Source: a virus (lineage: Duplodnaviria > Heunggongvirae > Uroviricota > Caudoviricetes). Taken from it: a stretch of 10,721 nucleotides of DNA. Shown here in pieces: positions 1-9,489 of this stretch; position 1 is the stretch's first letter, and every line of letters starts with the position of its first letter. A model generated the notes under the pieces. That model saw nothing but the letters and a program-made list of their open reading frames with translations. It ran no database searches and was not told the DNA's origin. Both the position numbers and the translations under genes were made by a program. The DNA lies in IMG/VR virus record IMGVR_UViG_3300044451_000174, positions 1-10,721 of that record. One strand, written 5' to 3'.

Positions 1-1
1 C

Positions 2-139
2 CGGCGCGGGTGGCGGGTGTTCGGCGTCCAGAAGCCCGAACACACCCACACCGAAGCGACGATCTTCCTGAAGTGGGACAGCTTGCTGTCTCTGGTGTTG
101 CTGGCCGACGACCTCATCAAGCAGTACGAGGGTAAGTGA
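2..139 (+). CDS. 3' end of hypothetical protein (starts before the window)
   Basis: Frame 2 is open from the window edge (RRGWRVFGVQKPEHTHTEATIFLKWDSLL...QYEGK) to TGA 137-139, which overlaps the next ATG. Confidence 0.7.
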   Translation, partial: RRGWRVFGVQKPEHTHTEATIFLKWDSLLSLVLLADDLIKQYEGK

Positions 140-525
140 TGTTCACGAGCGACGACGCAACGACGGTTTCGACCTACTTCGCGGCGTTCAAGAACACGCC
201 GCCCGTCATCCTCGACGTAGGGCAGAACACCGCCCAAGAAGCGTACATCCTCATCGACGGGTGCGGCTTGTCCATCGGCAAGCACCTTCGGCCGGCGCAA
301 CAGGTGATCTCCAAGCGGTTCGTTCCGGGCTACGTCTACCTCGTGTACGACCACAACGGCGAGGATGACGGCAACGAGTACAAGGATTTCGGCAGCGCGA
401 TCAAGGCGGCAATGCTCGCCTACGCCGCCGAGATGTTCCGCCGCACCAACGACCAGTTGGCAACCGCCGCGCAAGCGGCCGACTTCGCCCTCGACAAGCA
501 AACCCTCAAGGGAGACGGGCAGTGA
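139..525 (+). CDS. hypothetical protein (128 aa)
   Basis: ORF track 136..525; ATG 139 overlaps the upstream stop (TGATG); codon usage matches neighbours. Confidence 0.8.
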   Translation: MFTSDDATTVSTYFAAFKNTPPVILDVGQNTAQEAYILIDGCGLSIGKHLRPAQQVISKRFVPGYVYLVYDHNGEDDGNEYKDFGSAIKAAMLAYAAEMFRRTNDQLATAAQAADFALDKQTLKGDGQ

Positions 526-719
526 CAATCGGCAAGATCAGCAAAGGCACCGTCACGATTGACGGTGTTCTTTACAAGGCGTTCGAGAACAGCTTTAATC
601 GCCTCTGGTACGTCGTCAGAGGCACGAAGTCGAGCGACCCGACCGAAGCCCACTCCATCCGGGCGACGAGCGGGAAGAAGGCTCTGGAGCAGTGGATTGC
701 CACGCTCCAGAAAAGTTAG
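522..719 (+). CDS. hypothetical protein (65 aa)
   Basis: GTGA overlap with the upstream gene; TAG 717-719 abuts repeat element copy 1. Confidence 0.75.
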   Translation: MTIGKISKGTVTIDGVLYKAFENSFNRLWYVVRGTKSSDPTEAHSIRATSGKKALEQWIATLQKS

Positions 720-767
720 CGCAATTTCGGAGACTGCGAACGCGGCGGTGTGTAGTGGTGTCAACCC
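720..767 (+). promoter_or_regulatory. intergenic repeat element, copy 1 (CGCAATTT type, no long hairpin)
   Basis: cgcaatttcggagac-N16-tgtag with the same spacing as other copies; follows TAG directly; GGAG RBS and ATG 790 downstream. Confidence 0.8.
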
Positions 768-789
768 ATCACCCTTCGGAGACACGACG

Positions 790-1515
790 ATGGCCACCCA
801 ACACACCGCCGCTTCGCTGGCCTTCGACATCATCGGCCGCAACAAGGACAAGATTCAGGGCGTGAAGTACGCCCCGCGCGGCGACAAGGCCGAAGCGGTT
901 CGCCGGTTCATGGGCCGCGCCGTCACCGCCGAAATCTTCATCTCCGAGAAGCAGGCCGAGTTCCTCGGCAACCTGATCGGTGACGCGGGCGTCATCACCC
1001 ACGGCACCGGCGACCAGAAGTTCGGCGCGTTCGTCAAGGACATCTACAGCGAGTCGAAAGGCCGCACCTACTACCTGCTCACCTTCTGCGGCTTCGTCCC
1101 GCAACCCGAAGAAGCCGCCCCGATGACGCGGGACGAAGTCGCGGACATGCACGCCGACGCGGAGACGGCCCAACAGAAGGCCGACGATTTCGCCGCCTCG
1201 CTCATCCGCCGGGCGATGGAACAGAACCGCGTCCAGTTCGAGAAGCACGACGACGAGTTCGCGATGACGTGGTTGAGCAAGGCTCAGGCCGACGCCCTCA
1301 CCGCGAACCTCAAGGGCGCGGTCAAGCCGGACGGCTCGTTCATCACGCAGGCGTGCGGGTGCTTCTGCTACTGGGGCAAGAAGCGGACGATGAACGGGGC
1401 CATGCTGCTCTGCTGGATGGGCGAACCGGAAGACGCGCCGGTTGTCGAAGCCGCCCCGAAGGGTATCATCCCGGCCGGCAAGCGGATTCCCCTCGACCCG
1501 GCCATCCCCTTCTGA
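790..1515 (+). CDS. hypothetical protein (241 aa) ending in IPF
   Basis: ATG 790 follows a GGAG RBS; the track start at 559 would run through the upstream gene and the element. Confidence 0.85.
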   Translation: MATQHTAASLAFDIIGRNKDKIQGVKYAPRGDKAEAVRRFMGRAVTAEIFISEKQAEFLGNLIGDAGVITHGTGDQKFGAFVKDIYSESKGRTYYLLTFCGFVPQPEEAAPMTRDEVADMHADAETAQQKADDFAASLIRRAMEQNRVQFEKHDDEFAMTWLSKAQADALTANLKGAVKPDGSFITQACGCFCYWGKKRTMNGAMLLCWMGEPEDAPVVEAAPKGIIPAGKRIPLDPAIPF

Positions 1516-1521
1516 TCGAAA

Positions 1522-1563
1522 ACAAGACGCAATCTCGGAGACAACCGAGATTGCGTCTTGTGG
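1522..1563 (+). repeat. element copy 2 variant inside a perfect 17-bp inverted repeat
   Basis: acaagacgcaatctcgg (1522-1538), loop agacaa, ccgagattgcgtcttgt (1545-1561); contains cgcaatctcggagac-N16-tgtgg. Confidence 0.85.
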
Positions 1564-1578
1564 CACTAGGAGCTACCT

Positions 1579-1816
1579 ATGTCACCCGAACTGCTCGAAA
1601 ACGGCGGCATCAGAATCACCCTGCGGGCGCACGTCGTCTGCGGCCACTGTACAGAGTGTGCCGACTACAACCGCGAGGACACGCGAGAGCCGGGCATGTT
1701 CGGCCCGGAAGCTCAAGCCCACTTCGAGGAAGCCGGCTGGAGCTTCCTCGCTGGTCACAAACAAGGTGCGTTGCCCGACCTGCGTCAACATGAGAAGGAA
1801 GGCGAAGCGAAAATGA
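1579..1816 (+). pseudogene. small Zn-binding protein (CxxC...GW...CPxC), frameshifted as sequenced
   Basis: N-terminal CGHC is in the 1579 frame. VRCPTCVNMRRKAKRK-stop is in the +1 frame, and its TGA overlaps ATG 1813. Removing one A at 1759-1761 restores one ORF. Confidence 0.65.
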
Positions 1817-2202
1817 AACTGATCTACTTCAACCTGCACAAACGCGGCTGGTCCATCAAGAACCCCCAGACGGGGCTTGTGGAGAACAAGCAGGATCTCA
1901 AGACCTTCGTTCTCCTCAAGGGTGTAACGTTCAAGGTCAACGAGCGGGCGCGGCAGCGGGTGATTGCCGAGAAGCGGAAGAACGTTCACGCTTTCGCATG
2001 CGGCGAGATCGCCGGCTTCGAGCCGAGTCTGGAGTTCCTCGACGCAGTCACCCCGGTGACCTACAACCCGTACAAGGCGGGACACTTCGTCCGCAAAGAC
2101 GAGGGTCACGAAGGCGAAGCGGTTCACCAGTGCCGGCTGCTGATCATGGGTACGAAGGAGATCGATGGCAAGCGGGTTCCACAACTCTTCGCAGCACTGT
2201 GA
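1813..2202 (+). CDS. phage-type hypothetical protein (YFNLHK...RKNVHAF...YNPYK motifs)
   Basis: Internal ATG with a purine-rich upstream region and an ATGA overlap; the motif string is recalled from uncharacterised phage proteins. Confidence 0.8.
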   Translation: MKLIYFNLHKRGWSIKNPQTGLVENKQDLKTFVLLKGVTFKVNERARQRVIAEKRKNVHAFACGEIAGFEPSLEFLDAVTPVTYNPYKAGHFVRKDEGHEGEAVHQCRLLIMGTKEIDGKRVPQLFAAL

Positions 2203-2211
2203 GGATCTCGA

Positions 2212-2406
2212 ATGACGTGGGAAGAGATCAAACGCGACTGGGACGAAGGCGAGCGGCGAGACGCTCGTGAGGACTGGGAAATGCGGTTGGAGGCCAGTCG
2301 CGGGGACTGGTTTCCGAGGACCAAGCAAGAAGAGATCGAGTTCTGTTGGCGCTGGTACGACCACGCCGACAGGCCGATTGGCCAACGTTCGGGGAGAAGG
2401 CGATGA
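2212..2406 (+). CDS. hypothetical protein (64 aa, W/E/R-rich)
   Basis: ORF track; ATGA overlap with the next gene. Confidence 0.7.
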   Translation: MTWEEIKRDWDEGERRDAREDWEMRLEASRGDWFPRTKQEEIEFCWRWYDHADRPIGQRSGRRR

Positions 2407-2580
2407 AGGCGGCGTGTTGCAGCGTCTGCGGCCGGCTGACCGCAGAAGGCGATTACGGGAAGCTCCTGATCGCGGTGGCCGACCGTCACCGCAACAAGGC
2501 GGATCAGGAACCTGTTCGTCTCGGAGTGCAACGACGGCGCGGACCACGTTCTGACCATCGTGGAAGCCCCGCTGAAATGA
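2403..2580 (+). pseudogene. small Cys-containing protein, frameshifted as sequenced
   Basis: MKAACCSVCGR... from ATG 2403. The +1 frame reads RIRNLFVSECNDGADHVLTIVEAPLK and stops at TGA 2578-2580, next to element copy 3. The unshifted frame reads through the element. Confidence 0.55.
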
Positions 2581-2581
2581 G

Positions 2582-2628
2582 CGCAATTTCGGAGACTCGC
2601 GAACGACGTGCGTGTAGGCTTGTAACCC
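2582..2628 (+). promoter_or_regulatory. intergenic repeat element, copy 3 (CGCAATTT type)
   Basis: cgcaatttcggagac-N16-tgtag; TGA 1 nt upstream; GGAG RBS and ATG 2642 downstream. Confidence 0.8.
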
Positions 2629-2641
2629 ACTGGAGCTTAAC

Positions 2642-2815
2642 ATGCACGTCGTTCACGCCCCCAAGAGCAAAGAAATCAAGTTCACGGTTTCCACCCCCAA
2701 GAACGTGCCGACCGGCCACACGCAGCACCGCAGCGGCGGCGGCAAACACGGCGACCGCCGCACCAAACGCCTCAACACGCGGGCCGCGCGGTTCAACGCG
2801 GCCACGAAGGAGTAA
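2642..2815 (+). CDS. small basic hypothetical protein (57 aa), not in the ORF track
   Basis: GGAG RBS; MHVVHAPKSKEIKFTVSTPKNVPTGHTQHRSGGGKHGDRRTKRLNTRAARFNAATKE, TAA 2813-2815. Confidence 0.75.
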   Translation: MHVVHAPKSKEIKFTVSTPKNVPTGHTQHRSGGGKHGDRRTKRLNTRAARFNAATKE

Positions 2816-2816
2816 C

Positions 2817-3007
2817 ATGGACCCCATTACGAAGTCAAGGTGAACCGGGGCGACAACTACCGCCACAACTACGAACTGACCGGCTACACCGTGCCGAGCT
2901 TCGAGGAGTTGGAGAAGCGGATGAAGCTGAACCTCGAAAACGAGATTCGGCACGCGACCGCCGAAGTGAGCCGGGTAACGAAGCGAATCGACGCCGCGAA
3001 AGCTTGA
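2817..3007 (+). pseudogene. hypothetical protein, frameshifted as sequenced (or GTG start at 2840)
   Basis: The AAGGAG RBS and ATG 2817 give only MDPITKSR. One extra C in the CCCC run at 2822-2825 gives MDPHYEVKVNRG...KRIDAAKA ending at TGA 3005-3007. Confidence 0.6.
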
Positions 3008-3017
3008 CCCCAACCCC

Positions 3018-3043
3018 GACAACCCGGTTCGCGCCGGGTTGTC
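3018..3043. repeat. 10-bp hairpin sharing the outer stem of the element
   Basis: gacaacccgg-ttcgcg-ccgggttgtc; intergenic, upstream of a GGAG RBS. Confidence 0.8.
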
Positions 3044-3061
3044 CCCCAACCGGAGAGCGAC

Positions 3062-3349
3062 ATGCCCGCGAAGAAGATGGTAAAGCGTGCGAACGTGGAC
3101 TACAAGTTCTTGGTGATCGGGCCGTTCTGCTTCGGCAAGGCCGACACCGAGAAGCAAGCCATCGCCAACGCCAAGAAGAACGCGCCGAGCAGCGAGAAGT
3201 TCGGGAACTACAGCGTGTACCTCGTTCCCCCGGACACCGGCGTTGACGGCCTCGGCCGCATCATCTGGAAGGAAGGCACCGCGAACCCCATCATCCTCTA
3301 CAAGAAGATGAAGGACGGCAAAGAGCAACCCATTACCGAAAGCATGTGA
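3062..3349 (+). CDS. hypothetical protein (95 aa)
   Basis: ORF track; GGAG RBS; typical codon usage. Confidence 0.8.
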   Translation: MPAKKMVKRANVDYKFLVIGPFCFGKADTEKQAIANAKKNAPSSEKFGNYSVYLVPPDTGVDGLGRIIWKEGTANPIILYKKMKDGKEQPITESM

Positions 3350-3352
3350 CCC

Positions 3353-3595
3353 ATGTACGTCTGGATTCTCAAGTTGTGGAACAAAAACAAGATCGAATCG
3401 ACGGTCATTCACGGCGTATACGACAGCCTAGACGCCATCGTGATGTTCTTCACCTCTCGCGGTTACGATTTGGTTGTGGCGTCTGTGGTCAACGAAGACG
3501 TGCATTTTGAGTTCGCGGGCCACGGCGAAACGGCAAAGTACATCGCAGAGCGGCGCGGCTTGGCGACCGTCGCCAGTTGCCAAAAGAAAGACTGA
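3353..3595 (+). CDS. hypothetical protein (80 aa)
   Basis: ORF track; TGA abuts element copy 4. Confidence 0.7.
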   Translation: MYVWILKLWNKNKIESTVIHGVYDSLDAIVMFFTSRGYDLVVASVVNEDVHFEFAGHGETAKYIAERRGLATVASCQKKD

Positions 3596-3644
3596 CGCAA
3601 AACCGAAGACAACCCTATGCCGTGCGTGTAGGGTTGTCTCGCCC
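3596..3644 (+). promoter_or_regulatory. intergenic repeat element, copy 4 (CGCAAAAC type, hairpin)
   Basis: cgcaaaaccgaagacaaccctatgc-cgtgc-gtgtagggttgtct; 14-bp stem with two G-U pairs. Confidence 0.85.
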
Positions 3645-3666
3645 ATTTCGCACTCGGAGCAACGCG

Positions 3667-3951
3667 ATGCCGTTCGTCAAGATCAGCAAGGCCGAGGCCA
3701 AGAAGCGGTTCGCCAAGAACGAAGCCATCTTCCTCTGCCCCTGCAAGCTCGCCCCGGACGGCCCCTTCAGCAGCGCGGCCCTCGTCTACGGCAAGGAATA
3801 CTTGGAGAAGGCCGAGATGTACCGCACGCACGAAACGCTCTGGAAGGGGAGCATCGAGGCGACCGCGTGGGACTTGATGTTCAACAACTGGAAGCACTAC
3901 AACGCGAGCTACGAGTGCGGCTATTACCCCACCTACTACATCCAGAAGTGA
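3667..3951 (+). CDS. hypothetical protein (94 aa)
   Basis: ATG 3667 follows a GGAG RBS after element copy 4. Confidence 0.8.
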   Translation: MPFVKISKAEAKKRFAKNEAIFLCPCKLAPDGPFSSAALVYGKEYLEKAEMYRTHETLWKGSIEATAWDLMFNNWKHYNASYECGYYPTYYIQK

Positions 3952-3958
3952 GGACGAC

Positions 3959-4165
3959 ATGAAGGCCGGCGACTCTGTCCGCACGAAGAACATCATGTTC
4001 TTCGTTGAGGCGACCAACCCCGACACGGGCGCGGAGATCGAAACGCAGTTCCCCCGGTGGCACCGGCTACAAGTGCTGTCGGTCAACCAAGCGGAACGCG
4101 AGGTCACGGTTTCGCTCCCCGATGGGTTCGAGGCGGTGTTGAGCTTCGATGACGTGGAAGTGTGA
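3959..4165 (+). CDS. hypothetical protein (68 aa), possibly a small SH3-like beta barrel
   Basis: GAGG RBS; the KAGDSV start and alternating beta-strand pattern suggest the fold (inference only). Confidence 0.75.
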   Translation: MKAGDSVRTKNIMFFVEATNPDTGAEIETQFPRWHRLQVLSVNQAEREVTVSLPDGFEAVLSFDDVEV

Positions 4166-4188
4166 CGCAACAACCTCAAGGTGCCACG

Positions 4189-4404
4189 ATGTTCACGAAG
4201 TGCTTGGTCAACCTGCAAGACGTGTGTGAGCCGGGCGGCAGCGGCCGACTCTGGTACTGGGCGTTCGAGGACAAGGACGGCAAGGTGTTTCACCGCCCGC
4301 TCACCCTCGGCGCGGTGTTGGATCTCGCGGCCGACCTGATGCCGCAAGAGTGGGCGATGCTGCAACGGGCGATGAAGGAACCCGGAACTTGGGTCGGGAA
4401 CTGA
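4189..4404 (+). CDS. hypothetical protein (71 aa; alternative GTG start at 4162)
   Basis: AAGGTG RBS before ATG 4189; stop is 2 nt before element copy 5. Confidence 0.7.
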   Translation: MFTKCLVNLQDVCEPGGSGRLWYWAFEDKDGKVFHRPLTLGAVLDLAADLMPQEWAMLQRAMKEPGTWVGN

Positions 4405-4406
4405 GG

Positions 4407-4454
4407 CGCAAAACCGGAGACAACTCTACACCGCCCTTGTAGGGTTGTCAGCCC
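4407..4454 (+). promoter_or_regulatory. intergenic repeat element, copy 5 (hairpin)
   Basis: cgcaaaaccggagacaactctaca-ccgccct-tgtagggttgtc; 12-bp stem with one U-G pair. Confidence 0.85.
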
Positions 4455-4477
4455 ATCACCCGCTACTGGAGAACGCG

Positions 4478-4684
4478 ATGAAGATTCGCACGCTCATCAA
4501 GGCCGGCGACCGCGTCACCATCAAGAACCGCTTCGGCCAAGAGAAGACGGGCAAGGCCGTGATGCCGAGCGGCGAAGGTGGGTGGGTGCTGAACATGGGT
4601 GGCGCTCACGGCACGCCCGGCCTCGCCACCGACGACAACGTGACCAAGATCAAAGGCAAACCCTTCAACAAGGAACAATCGTGA
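4478..4684 (+). CDS. hypothetical protein (68 aa), possibly SH3/KOW-like
   Basis: GGAG RBS before ATG 4478; IKAGDRVTI motif. Confidence 0.8.
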   Translation: MKIRTLIKAGDRVTIKNRFGQEKTGKAVMPSGEGGWVLNMGGAHGTPGLATDDNVTKIKGKPFNKEQS

Positions 4685-4791
4685 CCAAGTGCAACATCGG
4701 CATTACCGTACTCGTACTCACACGGCAAGTCACCGACCTGAAGCGGCGGAAGGCCGAAGCGGACGAACTCCGCAAACAACGCGGTTGGTGA
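4681..4791 (+). CDS. small hypothetical protein (36 aa)
   Basis: GTGA overlap preceded by AAGGA; stop is 2 nt before element copy 6. Confidence 0.55.
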   Translation: MTKCNIGITVLVLTRQVTDLKRRKAEADELRKQRGW

Positions 4792-4793
4792 TG

Positions 4794-4841
4794 CGCAAAA
4801 CCGGAGACAACCCTACACCGCCCTTGTAGGGTTGTCTCCCC
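4794..4841 (+). promoter_or_regulatory. intergenic repeat element, copy 6 (perfect 15-bp hairpin)
   Basis: ggagacaaccctaca (4803-4817), loop ccgccct, tgtagggttgtctcc (4825-4839). Confidence 0.9.
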
Positions 4842-4860
4842 CAACCATTCGAGGTGCAGA

Positions 4861-5037
4861 ATGACCACGACGGACATCGTTAACGCCGCCGCGAACGCGA
4901 TGGCGAACCTGCAACTCTTCGGCAACCTCGGCCCGGCCGTTCGACTGGAAATGTGCCACATCCTGAAGTGCAACCCGGCCGACCTCGACGCCGCGCTGAA
5001 CGACGAAGACACGATGCTCGCGTGCCTCGGTTACTGA
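4861..5037 (+). CDS. hypothetical protein (58 aa), not in the ORF track
   Basis: GAGGT RBS; MTTTDIVNAAANAMANLQLFGNLGPAVRLEMCHILKCNPADLDAALNDEDTMLACLGY. Confidence 0.75.
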   Translation: MTTTDIVNAAANAMANLQLFGNLGPAVRLEMCHILKCNPADLDAALNDEDTMLACLGY

Positions 5038-5062
5038 ACCCCCACCTCGAACCCACAGGACT

Positions 5063-5290
5063 ATGGAAAACGTCATCACCTCCGGTCCCGCCGCAACGCC
5101 CGGCGACGGCATCTATGGGCAAGCTCGCGGGCTGCGGCTCACCACCGACGAGCAGGCGATGCTCGCGGACATGAAACAACACTACGGCGAGAAGAACGCC
5201 AGTCAGGTTCTCCGCATCGCCCTGCGGCACCTGTACGACTCGGTCACCGCGCCCTCGCCCGTTGCCGCACCCGAACCCGCAATTTCCTGA
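5063..5290 (+). CDS. putative ribbon-helix-helix (CopG/Arc-like) DNA-binding protein
   Basis: RGLRL strand, helix TDEQAMLADMKQHYG, then helix NASQVLRIALRHLY fit the RHH pattern; AGGA RBS. Confidence 0.6.
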   Translation: MENVITSGPAATPGDGIYGQARGLRLTTDEQAMLADMKQHYGEKNASQVLRIALRHLYDSVTAPSPVAAPEPAIS

Positions 5291-5291
5291 A

Positions 5292-5340
5292 CGCAAAACC
5301 GGAGACAACCCTACGCCGAGTGTGTAGGGTTGTCTCGCCC
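5292..5340 (+). promoter_or_regulatory. intergenic repeat element, copy 7 (hairpin)
   Basis: cgcaaaaccggagacaaccctacgc-cgagt-gtgtagggttgtctc; 15-bp stem with one G-U pair. Confidence 0.9.
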
Positions 5341-5360
5341 ATCCCGAACTGGAGCTTGCG

Positions 5361-5840
5361 ATGCCGACGACCTCCGAAACGATCTTCAACACGGTGTTCT
5401 ACGCGACCGAACACACCGAACGCCCGCAGGCCGTTCTCGACTACTTCAAGGCCAACGACGGCAAGCGGCTGACCGCGCCCTACCTCAAGAAGATGTCGGA
5501 AACGCTCGGCTTCGAGGTCACGACGCACGCCCGCGCCAGCATGACCTACGTCAGCTTCCAGAACGGCGACCAGAAAACGGACATGATCATCGCCTACGCC
5601 CTCAAGAACATCGTCGTTGACGCGAAGTTCTTCGAGGAGTACAACCCGGCTCACCTCGACGCGGCCGTCAAGCGGAACATCGCCCGCGCCGCCGTCCTCA
5701 GCAACCAAGCCTCCATTGACGAACTCGCGGCTGCCATCGAAGGGTTCAAGGCTGCCGAAGCTCGCCTGAAGGCCGCGTTCGAGCCGTTCGGTCACGACCG
5801 CTACACCATCGAACGGAACTTTGACCTCAACAAAAACTGA
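5361..5840 (+). CDS. hypothetical protein (159 aa)
   Basis: ORF track; GGAG RBS; TGA abuts element copy 8. Confidence 0.85.
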   Translation: MPTTSETIFNTVFYATEHTERPQAVLDYFKANDGKRLTAPYLKKMSETLGFEVTTHARASMTYVSFQNGDQKTDMIIAYALKNIVVDAKFFEEYNPAHLDAAVKRNIARAAVLSNQASIDELAAAIEGFKAAEARLKAAFEPFGHDRYTIERNFDLNKN

Positions 5841-5888
5841 CGCAAAACCGGAGACAACCCTAAACCGAGCGTTTAGGGTTGTCTCCCC
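5841..5888 (+). promoter_or_regulatory. intergenic repeat element, copy 8 (perfect 16-bp hairpin)
   Basis: ggagacaaccctaaac (5850-5865), loop cgagc, gtttagggttgtctcc (5871-5886). Confidence 0.9.
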
Positions 5889-5908
5889 CACCCGAATTGG
5901 AGGTTGTC

Positions 5909-6091
5909 ATGCTGATGGCAGAACAGCTCGCGCTGGCTTGGATGGACGGCGAGTACAGCCTGATGGCGAACTTGCTGCGTGAGTTGGACACGCCGCGAGC
6001 GTTCCGCATGGGCGTGCGTGTCTACACGATGATCGAAGCCCAGTGGGGCAACGGCGCGGACTTCCTCAAGTGGCTCGAAGAGAACATCTAG
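5909..6091 (+). CDS. hypothetical protein (60 aa)
   Basis: GGAGG RBS before ATG 5909; TAG stop. Confidence 0.7.
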   Translation: MLMAEQLALAWMDGEYSLMANLLRELDTPRAFRMGVRVYTMIEAQWGNGADFLKWLEENI

Positions 6092-6139
6092 AACTTCGAG
6101 GTCGTCAAGGCCGGCAACGAAGCTGTGGCCGATCACGAC

Positions 6140-6266
6140 AATCGCATAGGATCGCTTCCAAGCCCGGATCGGCGACCCATCGCCCTTCCGGGCTTCTTTC
6201 GTTTCAACGCCCTTCTAGGGCTGTGCAAGGAGATCGCAATGGACATCAACGAAGCTAAGGCGAACG
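6140..6266 (+). repeat. 127-bp exact direct repeat, copy A
   Basis: Identical base for base to 7274-7400 (offset 1134). Confidence 0.97.
6160..6205 (+). terminator. probable intrinsic terminator (in repeat copy A)
   Basis: aagcccgga/tccgggctt stem with inner ggcga/tcgcc, followed by T-rich ctttcgtttc. Confidence 0.6.
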
Positions 6267-6361
6267 CGGGCGAAGCGGTCGATGAGGCGATCAACGACAC
6301 GCTCGGCAGCGGCGTGATGAAAGTCGAAGTGGTCAAAGCCGAAGTCACCGACAGCAAGTGA
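6239..6361 (+). CDS. small hypothetical protein (40 aa, starts MDINEAKAN)
   Basis: AAGGAG RBS at 6227-6232; ATG 6239. Confidence 0.65.
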   Translation: MDINEAKANAGEAVDEAINDTLGSGVMKVEVVKAEVTDSK

Positions 6362-6418
6362 AACAACAACCGCGCAGGAGTAGCTGCGAGCTACTTCCGC
6401 GCGAGGAGATAGCCCCCG

Positions 6419-6448
6419 ATGCGAGAATACCCGACAGGCTTCATATAG
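6419..6448 (+). CDS. candidate mini-ORF MREYPTGFI
   Basis: AGGAG at 6404-6408; shares the Y-x-x-G-F-I-stop ending with 6527-6550. Confidence 0.35.
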   Translation: MREYPTGFI

Positions 6449-6526
6449 CCCCGGCCCATGCTGACGTGACCAGCACGACCTGAGCCGCAGTCGCTAAACC
6501 GGCTCGCCACCCGCACGGAGCAGAAC

Positions 6527-6550
6527 ATGTACACTTCCGGCTTCATATGA
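6527..6550 (+). CDS. candidate mini-ORF MYTSGFI
   Basis: GGAG at 6517-6520, 6 nt before the ATG; same ending as 6419-6448. Confidence 0.35.
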   Translation: MYTSGFI

Positions 6551-6616
6551 CGCAGCGGCTTCAGCGTAGCCGTGGACACGCCGAACGGGGTGCCTGACCA
6601 CGGAACCAACCTTGCG

Positions 6617-6644
6617 TTGTGCGGCGGATTCACCGCACAATTTT
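6617..6644 (+). terminator. possible intrinsic terminator
   Basis: ttgtgcgg-cggattca-ccgcacaa followed by tttt. Confidence 0.5.
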
Positions 6645-6671
6645 GGAGACAAGAAGACGAACGACGTGTAG
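6636..6671 (+). promoter_or_regulatory. intergenic repeat element, copy 9 (degenerate)
   Basis: cacaattttggagac-N16-tgtag; spacing identical to copies 1-8. Confidence 0.7.
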
Positions 6672-6754
6672 AGGCGGGGTCCGGCAGCAGGGTCTGTCGG
6701 GGTAACGGCAGGTACGCCCGCCGCCCCGCCTCTACTTCTCAACCGAAGGTGATC

Positions 6755-7273
6755 ATGGTCAGCCTCAACGACATCGTCAGCATCCCGGCCAGCAGCCGCT
6801 ACGCGGTCGTCATCGGCTTCATCGAACACGGCCGGCGCAAGCTCGCCAAACTCCACTACATCGACCCGAAGACGGGCGACAAGATGGAATGCCCGGACCA
6901 TCGGTGCAACGGCCAGAACGACGCCTGCCCGATCCACGGCCGCAACGTCGATACCTGCGAACTCGAACCGTGGCGTGAGACGGACATCAACTACTACGCC
7001 GCCACCGGGATGCTGACGGCCGAACTCGCTCGGAAGGCGCTCGCCCCGGAGATCGAAATCAGCCGGGTGAACACCTACAAGTACCGGGTTCGCCTCGCGA
7101 AGCACGGCGAGAACATCCGCATCGCCACCGTGACCAGCGAGAACAACAACGACCTCTGGCAAGACGCCATCGCCCTGACCAACGACACCGACCGCATGAC
7201 GACCAAGCTGACCGACCCGGACAACGGCGACTACCAGAACTTCCTCGCCCTGTTCCAACCCGCTACCGTCTGA
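6755..7273 (+). CDS. hypothetical protein (172 aa) with a Cys/His cluster (CPDHRC...CPIH...C)
   Basis: GAAGGT RBS before ATG 6755; sequence upstream of this in the same frame lacks the typical codon usage. Confidence 0.8.
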   Translation: MVSLNDIVSIPASSRYAVVIGFIEHGRRKLAKLHYIDPKTGDKMECPDHRCNGQNDACPIHGRNVDTCELEPWRETDINYYAATGMLTAELARKALAPEIEISRVNTYKYRVRLAKHGENIRIATVTSENNNDLWQDAIALTNDTDRMTTKLTDPDNGDYQNFLALFQPATV

Positions 7274-7400
7274 AATCGCATAGGATCGCTTCCAAGCCCG
7301 GATCGGCGACCCATCGCCCTTCCGGGCTTCTTTCGTTTCAACGCCCTTCTAGGGCTGTGCAAGGAGATCGCAATGGACATCAACGAAGCTAAGGCGAACG
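7274..7400 (+). repeat. 127-bp exact direct repeat, copy B
   Basis: Identical to 6140-6266; begins right after TGA 7271-7273. Confidence 0.97.
7294..7339 (+). terminator. probable intrinsic terminator (in repeat copy B)
   Basis: Same hairpin and T tract as 6160-6205, here about 20 nt after a stop codon. Confidence 0.65.
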
Positions 7401-7714
7401 GGAAGACCAACCTTCCCCACCTCGCCGCACGAACCGCCGACCTAGCGCAGCGACTGCCCAAGCTCAAAGCCTCGCAGCTAGACGAAGTGGAACGCATGTT
7501 CGACACGCTTGTGCTGGCTGACAGCAACGCCGAGGATCTCGCTACCGAACTGCCCGGTCCTTTCGGCATCGAGGACCACGACACACGCTACCTACACTCG
7601 CTCAGGGATCAGAAGGACAGCGGCCGACCACTCACCAAGCAGCAGCTACTATCACTCAAGGTCGTACTACAGAGCGAGCGATACATGCGCCAGTTAGCAT
7701 TGCTGATGCAATGA
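7373..7714 (+). CDS. hypothetical protein (113 aa, starts MDINEAKAN)
   Basis: ORF track; AAGGAG RBS supplied by repeat copy B. Confidence 0.75.
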   Translation: MDINEAKANGKTNLPHLAARTADLAQRLPKLKASQLDEVERMFDTLVLADSNAEDLATELPGPFGIEDHDTRYLHSLRDQKDSGRPLTKQQLLSLKVVLQSERYMRQLALLMQ

Positions 7715-7727
7715 CAACAGTTGGATA

Positions 7728-7763
7728 GTATCCACCACACACTACTATGTGTGTGGTGGATAC
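7728..7763. repeat. perfect 15-6-15 palindrome
   Basis: gtatccaccacacac-tactat-gtgtgtggtggatac. Confidence 0.95.
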
Positions 7764-8044
7764 AAAGGTACAACGCTATGAACAGGACGCTGTAACATTT
7801 TAATGAATGTCGAAATTCAAAAGCAAAAAGTCTGACGATGGTTCCCGTTCGGGGGCGGTCCCCATACCTCTACGGCCTTGTTTTCTTATTAGCGTGTCAC
7901 AAAAAAATCCCGCCCAGGTTTTTCGGCCCCCGGCGTCAGGGTCGAACCTTTTGGAAACAAGAGCCGCGAAAAAATCCCGCCGACCAGCATAACGCAATTC
8001 TCCAGGGTTTTCACGATAGAATATCTGAACTCTGGGGGCGTTAA

Positions 8045-8482
8045 ATGATCTGCACCAAATGCAAAGAAGACAAAGGCGACGAACACTTCTATCGCGGGAA
8101 GAAACACAATGGCAGACGATGCAAGAAATGCCGAAGGCTAGAAAATGTCGCTTGGCTAAACAAGCTGTCTAGCAAGAGGGCTTACGTCAGTTACGTCCAC
8201 TCCAAAAAACGCGCCGAGAAAAAGCATCTCGATTTCGATTTAAGCATTGAATTTCTGGAGAACCTACTTCGGATTCAAAATGATTGCTGTGCTTTGTCGA
8301 AGATTCCTTTTTCCGATGCAGCACCCTTCGTGGCGAGCCTGGACAGAATAGACAACAGCAAAGGCTACTTGCGAGAAAACGTCCGCTACATTCTTTATGC
8401 GTTAAACACTGCCATCTCGAATCACGGGCTTGAAACTTACCTTCAAATCGCCGACGCAGTAAAAAGCAATTTGTCGAAATGA
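8045..8482 (+). CDS. HNH/His-Me finger endonuclease-like protein with N-terminal Zn ribbon (probable free-standing homing endonuclease)
   Basis: CxxC...CxxC N-terminus and SLDRIDNSKGY...NV...N motif; GC is clearly lower than in the flanking genes. Confidence 0.75.
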   Translation: MICTKCKEDKGDEHFYRGKKHNGRRCKKCRRLENVAWLNKLSSKRAYVSYVHSKKRAEKKHLDFDLSIEFLENLLRIQNDCCALSKIPFSDAAPFVASLDRIDNSKGYLRENVRYILYALNTAISNHGLETYLQIADAVKSNLSK

Positions 8483-9436: not shown

Positions 9437-9489
9437 CGGCTACCGCTACAATGAAGGCCAGACGTGAAGAAACGTCTGGCCTTCATTGT

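Follow-up and report, generated by a model that had tools for sequence, protein, structure and literature searches.

What is selected in a short inverted repeat that recurs between the genes of a phage, the double-stranded DNA on which it is written or the single strand into which it can fold? The question is raised by a 10,721-nucleotide stretch of DNA, here called the window, which is the first 10.7 kb of the 125.8-kb IMG/VR virus record IMGVR_UViG_3300044451_000174. Positions 1-7700 of the window are an array of small same-strand genes, and nine copies of a repeated element lie among them. The initial annotation had looked at five of these copies and proposed that the element is a hairpin, selected as a single-stranded structure. 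Comparison with related phages supports the maintenance of the pairing by compensatory change, in the sense strand, and it also reveals that the hairpin is not the element itself, since two short boxes at an invariant distance persist where no hairpin is formed. By its sequence, the element is probably a composite regulatory cassette of two layers, of the type known as promoter-early stem-loops (PeSLs).

The comparison draws on eight contigs, and the relatives among them were reached only by exact-protein look-ups; for two proteins of the array, of 159 aa and 241 aa, there are relatives at 35-78% identity. Phage A (L079) is the phage of the window, with 13.5 kb of further sequence upstream of it, and phage B (L078/L073) is a relative with a syntenic 20-kb contig, whose 159-aa protein is 68% identical. 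Six shorter contigs (L083, L084, L086, L088, L089 and L091; G+C 43 to 65%) were used in addition. Scans of IMG/VR and the JGI metagenomes with DNA patterns for box 1, the palindrome and the box pair returned single chance matches only, and protein-based locus searches of IMG/VR and GTDB genomes found no relatives. The contigs obtained from four partial DNA datasets belong to the same strain, are of low depth and broken at repeats, and hold no usable variants.

In the window the motif CGCAAWWYYGRAGAC occurs nine times, always on the + strand, where 0.67 occurrences are expected, and at the same stringency it is found nowhere else in the 125-kb record. Across the eight contigs (G+C 43 to 65%) there are about 67 copies of the element, all on the coding strand, with 21 in phage A, 24 in phage B, 6 in L083, 8 in L086 and 1-3 in each of L084, L088, L089 and L091. 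Their common layout is a phage-specific 9-mer, (G/A/C)GAGAC, exactly 16 nt, and T(G/A)(T/C)AG. The box-1 9-mer has an A/T-rich middle, with the 4-mers AAAC, ATTT and TTTT among the copies; it reads CGCAAAACC or CGCAATTTC in phage A, CGCAGATCG or CGCACTTCG in phage B and CACGGTTYC in L086, and contains TTTTT in the contig of 43% G+C. The spacing is strict: all 53 true + strand matches have 16 nt between the boxes (against 4 on the - strand), none has 15 or 17 nt, and every other true spacing has at most one match, while the matches at 18 nt are the same phage B elements read two bases earlier.

The placement is equally regular. The element starts at a median of 0-2 nt past the upstream stop codon, and box 2 lies at a median of 38 nt upstream of the next start codon, with the ribosome-binding site in between; about half of the genes have an element directly upstream. 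At L086:2011 and 3162 box 1 extends into the upstream coding sequence and is conserved all the same, and the copies without structure still carry both boxes. Between phages, positions 5, 9 and 10 of box 1 co-vary with position 33 in box 2, which is consistent with concerted evolution or with a lineage-specific reader. In its GAGAC-16-TGTA arrangement the element is similar to the -35 and -10 boxes of extracytoplasmic-function sigma promoters, and when read as a promoter in the form GAGACA, 17-nt spacer, TAGGGT, it has sigma-type geometry with a mismatched consensus. A search against Rfam gave nothing, ribozymes included, and no trans-acting RNA complementary to the boxes was seen when one was looked for.

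Two further box-like arrangements were noted. One is a match to GAGAA, 16 nt, TATAG in the mini-ORF region (window 6413-6448 and phage B 18687, in L073), which is kept in both phages without box 1 and was excluded from the element count. The other follows from the near-perfect palindromes at 4794-4839, 5292-5337 and 5841-5886, whose minus strand also reads GAGAC, 16 nt, (T/C)GTAG, without the box-1 9-mer; antisense firing from these copies, into the upstream gene, would be possible.

The hairpin forms a second layer, which we surveyed by folding the first 60 nt of each copy, with z scores against dinucleotide shuffles for the window copies. Position 1 of the element is the C of CGCAA, and in the canonical hairpin each position i has 56-i as its partner. 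Strong structure (z -3 or lower) is seen in about half of the copies, and about one third are unstructured (z above -1). The latter include window copy 1 (720-765, CGCAATTTC-GGAGAC, 16 nt, TGTAG; z +0.90) and copy 3 (2582-2627; z +0.96), both on the + strand, in which the two boxes stand at the invariant 16 nt and the hairpin is not significant; here the hairpin as the definition of the element fails.

The five copies described in the initial annotation are all present, on the + strand and intergenic: copy 4 (3596-3641), copy 5 (4407-4452), copy 6 (4794-4839), copy 7 (5292-5337) and copy 8 (5841-5886). Each has both boxes and the canonical hairpin, with stems of 12-16 bp that, as RNA, fold with -17.8 to -28.1 kcal/mol and z from -3.2 to -7.9. 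The pairs are those it had given. Pair 23/33 is T-G in copy 4, C-G in copies 5, 6 and 7 and A-T in copy 8, where the double change also makes box 2 TTTAG; pair 24/32 is G-T, as in copy 4, or A-T; and pair 19/37 is C-G, with T-G in copy 5. Copy 4 pairs 12-25 with 31-44 (z -4.8), copy 5 is the least stable by z (-3.2), copy 6 has 15 bp (z -7.9), copy 7 has a z of -6.0, and copy 8 is a perfect 16-bp hairpin (z -7.8). The loop varies among the five. Mismatches had been said to occur only at the stem ends; this is so in these copies (pairs 10-12 and 25/31, the latter C.T in copies 5 and 6), whereas the wider set has a few internal ones (T.T at 16/40, A.C at 14/42, 15/41 and 17/39, and C.A at 21/35).

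The register of the hairpin varies among copies and phages, with at least four registers in addition to junctions that have a hairpin only. Canonical copies have a spacer complementary to box 2 and, 3' of box 2, a sequence complementary to box 1. The junction after the 241-aa gene uses the spacer differently, as the partner of the 5' half of box 1. Window copy 2 (1522-1563, + strand) shows this pairing, as a 17-bp hairpin between 1522-1538 and 1545-1561 (-30.7 kcal/mol, z -9.1) with a degenerate box 2, TGTGG; the orthologous junction of copy 2 in four relatives has the same type of hairpin, made from each phage's own box 1. Box 2 has its partner farther downstream in four copies (window copy 9, L079:5844, phage B:3324 and L086:6291). 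Copy 9 (6636-6735, + strand) consists of CACAATTTT-GGAGAC, 16 nt and TGTAG, and its box 2 serves as 5' arm in a long structure that continues downstream (6668-6735; z -4.0, at -46.3 kcal/mol). In L084 and L086:4318 there is a short stem inside the spacer. Lastly, hairpins without boxes are present at four junctions in L086 and at window 3018-3043 (+ strand, GACAACCCGG / CCGGGTTGTC; -20.9 kcal/mol, z -3.3), and downstream of the window junction come a run of C, then a ribosome-binding site and the start codon.

A few of these stems look like intrinsic terminators, namely the stem CAACCCTAC/GTAGGGTTG followed by TTTTCTTTTG in L088, and the copy at L079:2403, followed by GCTTTTTCTT. A terminator read on the minus strand, with the hairpin followed by GGTTTTGCG, was considered and rejected, the T run being missing in the ATTT and phage B versions of box 1.

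Five window copies with one double change between them are thin evidence alone, and the support comes from the larger set on which the initial annotation had wanted covariation checked. We aligned, without gaps, 29 hairpins of the canonical register (13 from the window's phage, 15 from phage B and 1 from a third contig), chosen for at least 10 of 12 core pairs, a choice that biases the percentage paired upward and leaves the double changes unaffected. The paired cells amount to 88%, and to 98% (284 of 290) for pairs 14-23, while sliding the partner by 1-3 columns reduces pairing to 34-56%. Changes on both sides are found at 6 of the 16 pairs, in 28 cells, and none of 500 shuffles reached the covariation score. 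Pair 17/39 is AU in 23 copies, CG in 3, UA in 1 and GU in 1; pair 19/37 is CG in 27, AU in 1 and UG in 1; pair 22/34 is AU in 16, GU in 8 and GC in 5; and pair 23/33 is UA in 15, CG in 11, UG in 2 and AU in 1. Within phage B, pair 22/34 is A-T in four copies, G-C in five and G-T in six, and never A-C. The junction after the 241-aa gene gives evidence of a different kind, with a hairpin of 11-17 bp in five phages, each with a different box 1; the spacer has therefore tracked box 1 each time. Two other analyses were less informative. Mutual information over all copies is dominated by phage lineage, and within phages by hairpin or non-hairpin class, so that the 56-i diagonal cannot be ranked, and RNAalifold on the five orthologous copy-2 junctions is blurred by a 1-nt register shift, the single folds being clearer.

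The tolerance of wobble pairs had been taken to favour a single-stranded fold over a double-stranded operator, and the enlarged set agrees with this. Among the core pairs, G.T exceeds A.C by 33 to 4, and still by 15 to 4 when the two loop-adjacent pairs are left aside (binomial p about 0.01). In addition, 19 of 28 copies fold more stably as the + strand than as the reverse complement, and the mean advantage of the + strand is 1.9 kcal/mol (Wilcoxon p 0.005). Neither base composition nor a C-to-T bias explains this asymmetry, because random 37-nt windows of the array have none (-0.08 kcal/mol) and T is the rarest base of the + strand. The excess of G.T over A.C and the better folding of the + strand indicate that pairing is selected in the sense strand and argue against a plain double-stranded operator. 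This strand bias favours a sense fold, most simply in RNA that reads through from upstream.

Between the syntenic phages A and B, the differences come in blocks with elements at their borders. Where the window has eight genes and four elements (3596-5290), phage B has one gene and one element. The 60-aa gene that follows copy 8 (5909-6091, + strand; 5897-6091 with its ribosome-binding site) is 71% identical to L078:4269-4445, about 13 kb away in the phage B array. It is flanked by elements in both phages, and the homology spans only the region from the ribosome-binding site to the stop codon; the cassette has moved between element-flanked slots. Gene cassettes are gained, lost and moved at elements. 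The copies resemble other copies of the same phage more than their orthologues, which indicates concerted evolution.

These observations are best accommodated by the two-layer cassette. The first layer, in all copies, would be a promoter-like signal read on double-stranded DNA, which comprises the A/T-rich phage-specific 9-mer abutting the stop codon, a -35-like GAGAC(A), the 16-nt spacer and a -10-like T(G/A)(T/C)AG, with TAGGGT as the -10-like box in the hairpin copies. Transcription would begin upstream of the ribosome-binding site, at a distance of about 20-25 nt from the start codon. The second layer, in about half of the copies including window copies 4-8, is a hairpin superimposed on the boxes, which sense read-through transcripts from upstream would fold right after the stop codon. 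Most likely such a hairpin would attenuate or end upstream transcription, or protect or define the 3' end of the upstream message; attenuation, 3'-end protection and processing are, as we infer them, equally possible roles. As the cassettes are repeated, they would also provide homology patches for the exchange of gene cassettes.

Two reports describe PeSLs from the T4-type phages RB49/phi1, T4/PST and KVP40/nt-1 as cassettes that begin at a stop codon within A/T-rich sequence, continue over -35 and -10 boxes and end at a ribosome-binding site, with stem-loops in five positional subclasses, including between or overlapping the boxes, and with G-T pairs; promoter and terminator activity and modular shuffling were tested there (PMC2839356, PMC4122927). 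The element studied here likewise lies on the coding strand between the upstream stop codon and the downstream ribosome-binding site, has two boxes a constant distance apart, the -35 box being preceded by A/T-rich sequence, and carries a stem-loop of variable position, between or over the boxes, with G-T pairs (33 in our set). It is likewise repeated among small genes of no known function, and marks the boundaries at which genes are gained, lost and moved between related phages. By sequence, it has every architectural feature of PeSLs except identity to the sigma-70 consensus. The differences are in the boxes, which are GAGAC and TGTAG/TATAG rather than the E. coli sigma-70 consensus and vary between related phages; in the arms, which in the main class are built from the boxes and give a long perfect palindrome; and in the tails, most stems here having no U tract. 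The organism differs too, being an uncultured, G+C-rich, probably very large lake-water phage whose capsid gene is only distantly T4-like, and the measured activities are those of PeSLs. The element is thus not a new kind of system, its design being already known from T4-type phages. A short motif with an imperfect inverted repeat upstream of many genes, of no known function, is also said to occur in cluster K mycobacteriophages, as the start-associated and extended start-associated sequences. The start-associated motif reportedly includes the ribosome-binding site by the start codon, whereas the boxes here lie about 38 nt upstream and abut the previous stop.

Several points weigh against the two-layer reading. 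The boxes differ from TTGACA/TATAAT and are not flagged by a consensus scan, although the consensus of the host may be a different one, and the last T of the -10 box is not conserved in the hairpin-less copies. The 125-kb record, only about a quarter of the genome, yielded neither a sigma factor nor a phage RNA polymerase; searches of it for sigma-70 region 2, tyrosine recombinase and RNase III found none, and a Pfam search for a T7-type polymerase was silent, as was its control. (Two weak region-4-like matches at 64.7-65.0 kb belong to a LAGLIDADG/HTH endonuclease-like protein.) Most canonical hairpins, in the G+C-rich copies, have a C-rich tail instead of a U tract, although the window does have a classical hairpin with a T-tract, at 6160-6205; efficient intrinsic termination at the canonical copies is therefore doubtful. 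As for the covariation, copies of the same phage are related by duplication or conversion and the cell counts overstate the independent events, and template-switch correction of quasi-palindromes could yield some double changes without selection. We estimate the independent double changes at about 6-7, which is still far above unselected drift.

Among other explanations, the initial annotation had named RNase III-type processing stems, which would cut a long polycistronic RNA into single-gene messages and leave the boxes to serve otherwise. The hairpin is indeed sense-selected, lies exactly between cistrons and occurs at some junctions by itself, and there is a likeness to the sites of the T7 early transcript, which are also sense-strand RNA stems between the cistrons of a same-strand array. 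T7 sites span about two helical turns, often with an internal loop; the perfect stems of 12-16 bp found here are shorter, are missing at many junctions and are tied to DNA boxes of fixed spacing. A third of the boxed junctions have no stem, the 16-nt spacing would be left unexplained, and no RNase III gene was found in the record, though the host enzyme would suffice; we therefore regard processing as the whole explanation as unlikely. An operator, on which a dimeric phage regulator would bind the inverted repeat over both boxes and co-silence the promoters, agrees with the strong conservation of the arms, which have 12 invariant columns among the 29 aligned copies and cover the -35-like and -10-like boxes, and a 75-aa protein with a ribbon-helix-helix-like pattern is encoded in the array itself (5063-5290). 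This protein is without a match in Pfam, and phage B, with its 15 palindromic copies, lacks a homologue of it; half-sites 24 bp apart with a 37-bp span would also be unusual. Moreover, symmetric positions in the same phage change together to different base pairs, and the two strands are not equivalent, with G.T tolerated and A.C rare, which makes the operator distinctly unlikely. It is very unlikely, too, that the pairing has no function and that the palindromes are kept perfect by template-switch repair and gene conversion, the repeats mattering only as recombination patches. The resemblance of same-phage copies above orthologues and the exchange of cassettes at elements would suit this idea; five phages forming hairpins at the same junction from unrelated sequences, the hairpin-only junctions made of other sequences, and a G.T over A.C bias that is not expected from mismatch-blind correction all speak against it.

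The remaining candidates would have the hairpin act as DNA, as in the promoters of the N4 virion RNA polymerase and in attC sites, where function depends on a single-stranded DNA fold; the element differs from these in the dimensions of stem and loop and in the conserved cores, and neither partner enzyme was found in the 125-kb record, the polymerase search being the one with a silent control. In the N4-like case, a cruciform or single-strand form on supercoiled or newly injected DNA would be recognised by a polymerase or would gate the promoter. Canonical copies do hold both boxes within the arms, and G.T is the least harmful mismatch in DNA hairpins too. N4 promoter hairpins have stems of 5-7 bp and 3-nt loops, whereas the stems here have 12-16 bp and the loops 5-11 nt, and the copies that do not fold keep the same linear box spacing and placement. 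A cruciform would fold both strands, yet the + strand alone is favoured, and the 2690-aa protein of the record has no polymerase match and by its placement suggests a tail protein. We give this mechanism only a slim chance. The same holds for its specific version, in which the palindromic copies would be structure-dependent promoters whose boxes are read by a lineage-specific polymerase or sigma factor when the hairpin is extruded on injected or supercoiled DNA; were it true, the unstructured copies would be a second temporal class, and the lineage-specific co-variation of box 1 and box 2 would track the reading factor. An integron-like cassette system with attC-like single-strand recombination sites would account for an array that resembles gene cassettes separated by imperfect palindromes, and in which one cassette has moved. 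The stems are, however, perfect and without extrahelical bases, and the right arm, GTTGTCT, is off the GTTRRRY core (AGACAAC/GTTGTCT fit only the AAC/GTT part of RYYYAAC/GTTRRRY). No tyrosine recombinase was found in the 125-kb record, and the elements lie 5' of genes with promoter-like boxes, whereas attC sites lie 3' of promoterless cassettes; we consider this reading extremely improbable.

The wider record is that of a tailed phage from lake-water metagenomes, with a CheckV completeness of about 25%. Its genes include those for a terminase, a portal, baseplate wedge proteins and a major head protein of the gp23 type, which shares 78% identity with its counterpart in an uncultured phage of 595 kb and only about 28-35% with those of cultured T4-like phages. 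The 595-kb relative (LR756511.1, L096) shares the head protein and an AAA ATPase (45%) with the record; the box pair is unmatched in it and no repeat family was found around its AAA ATPase homologue. The 2690-aa open frame (G000:C1:45853-53925) lies upstream of the baseplate genes, a position that suggests a tail protein; it had no PHROG, PDB or polymerase match and one weak below-threshold Pfam match, and may be a giant tail or tape-measure protein. Within the array only one gene has a family match, to an L5 gp82-like domain. The array of elements stops just upstream of window 7715-8482, where non-coding A/T-rich sequence precedes a gene of low G+C (46%) with PHROG matches to endonuclease VII / HNH, probably that of a mobile homing endonuclease. 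A 1134-bp module is flanked by a direct repeat of 127 bp, exact in its two copies (window 6140-6266 and 7274-7400); the repeat contains a classical terminator-like hairpin whose tail is T-rich, a ribosome-binding site and the opening codons of two genes, which diverge after that. At 9448-9489, a perfect 18-bp hairpin with a 6-nt loop stands between convergent genes and looks like a two-way terminator.

If the two-layer reading is correct, a promoter/terminator cassette design that has been published only for T4-type phages would extend to an uncultured lineage of lake-water phages. The roughly 30 hairpins, with several independent compensatory changes, make a natural data set in which an RNA-level signal lies over a DNA-level signal. 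The box sequences differ between related phages and would therefore offer a handle for finding their sigma factor or polymerase, and the cassette boundaries would explain how small genes are swapped among these phages.

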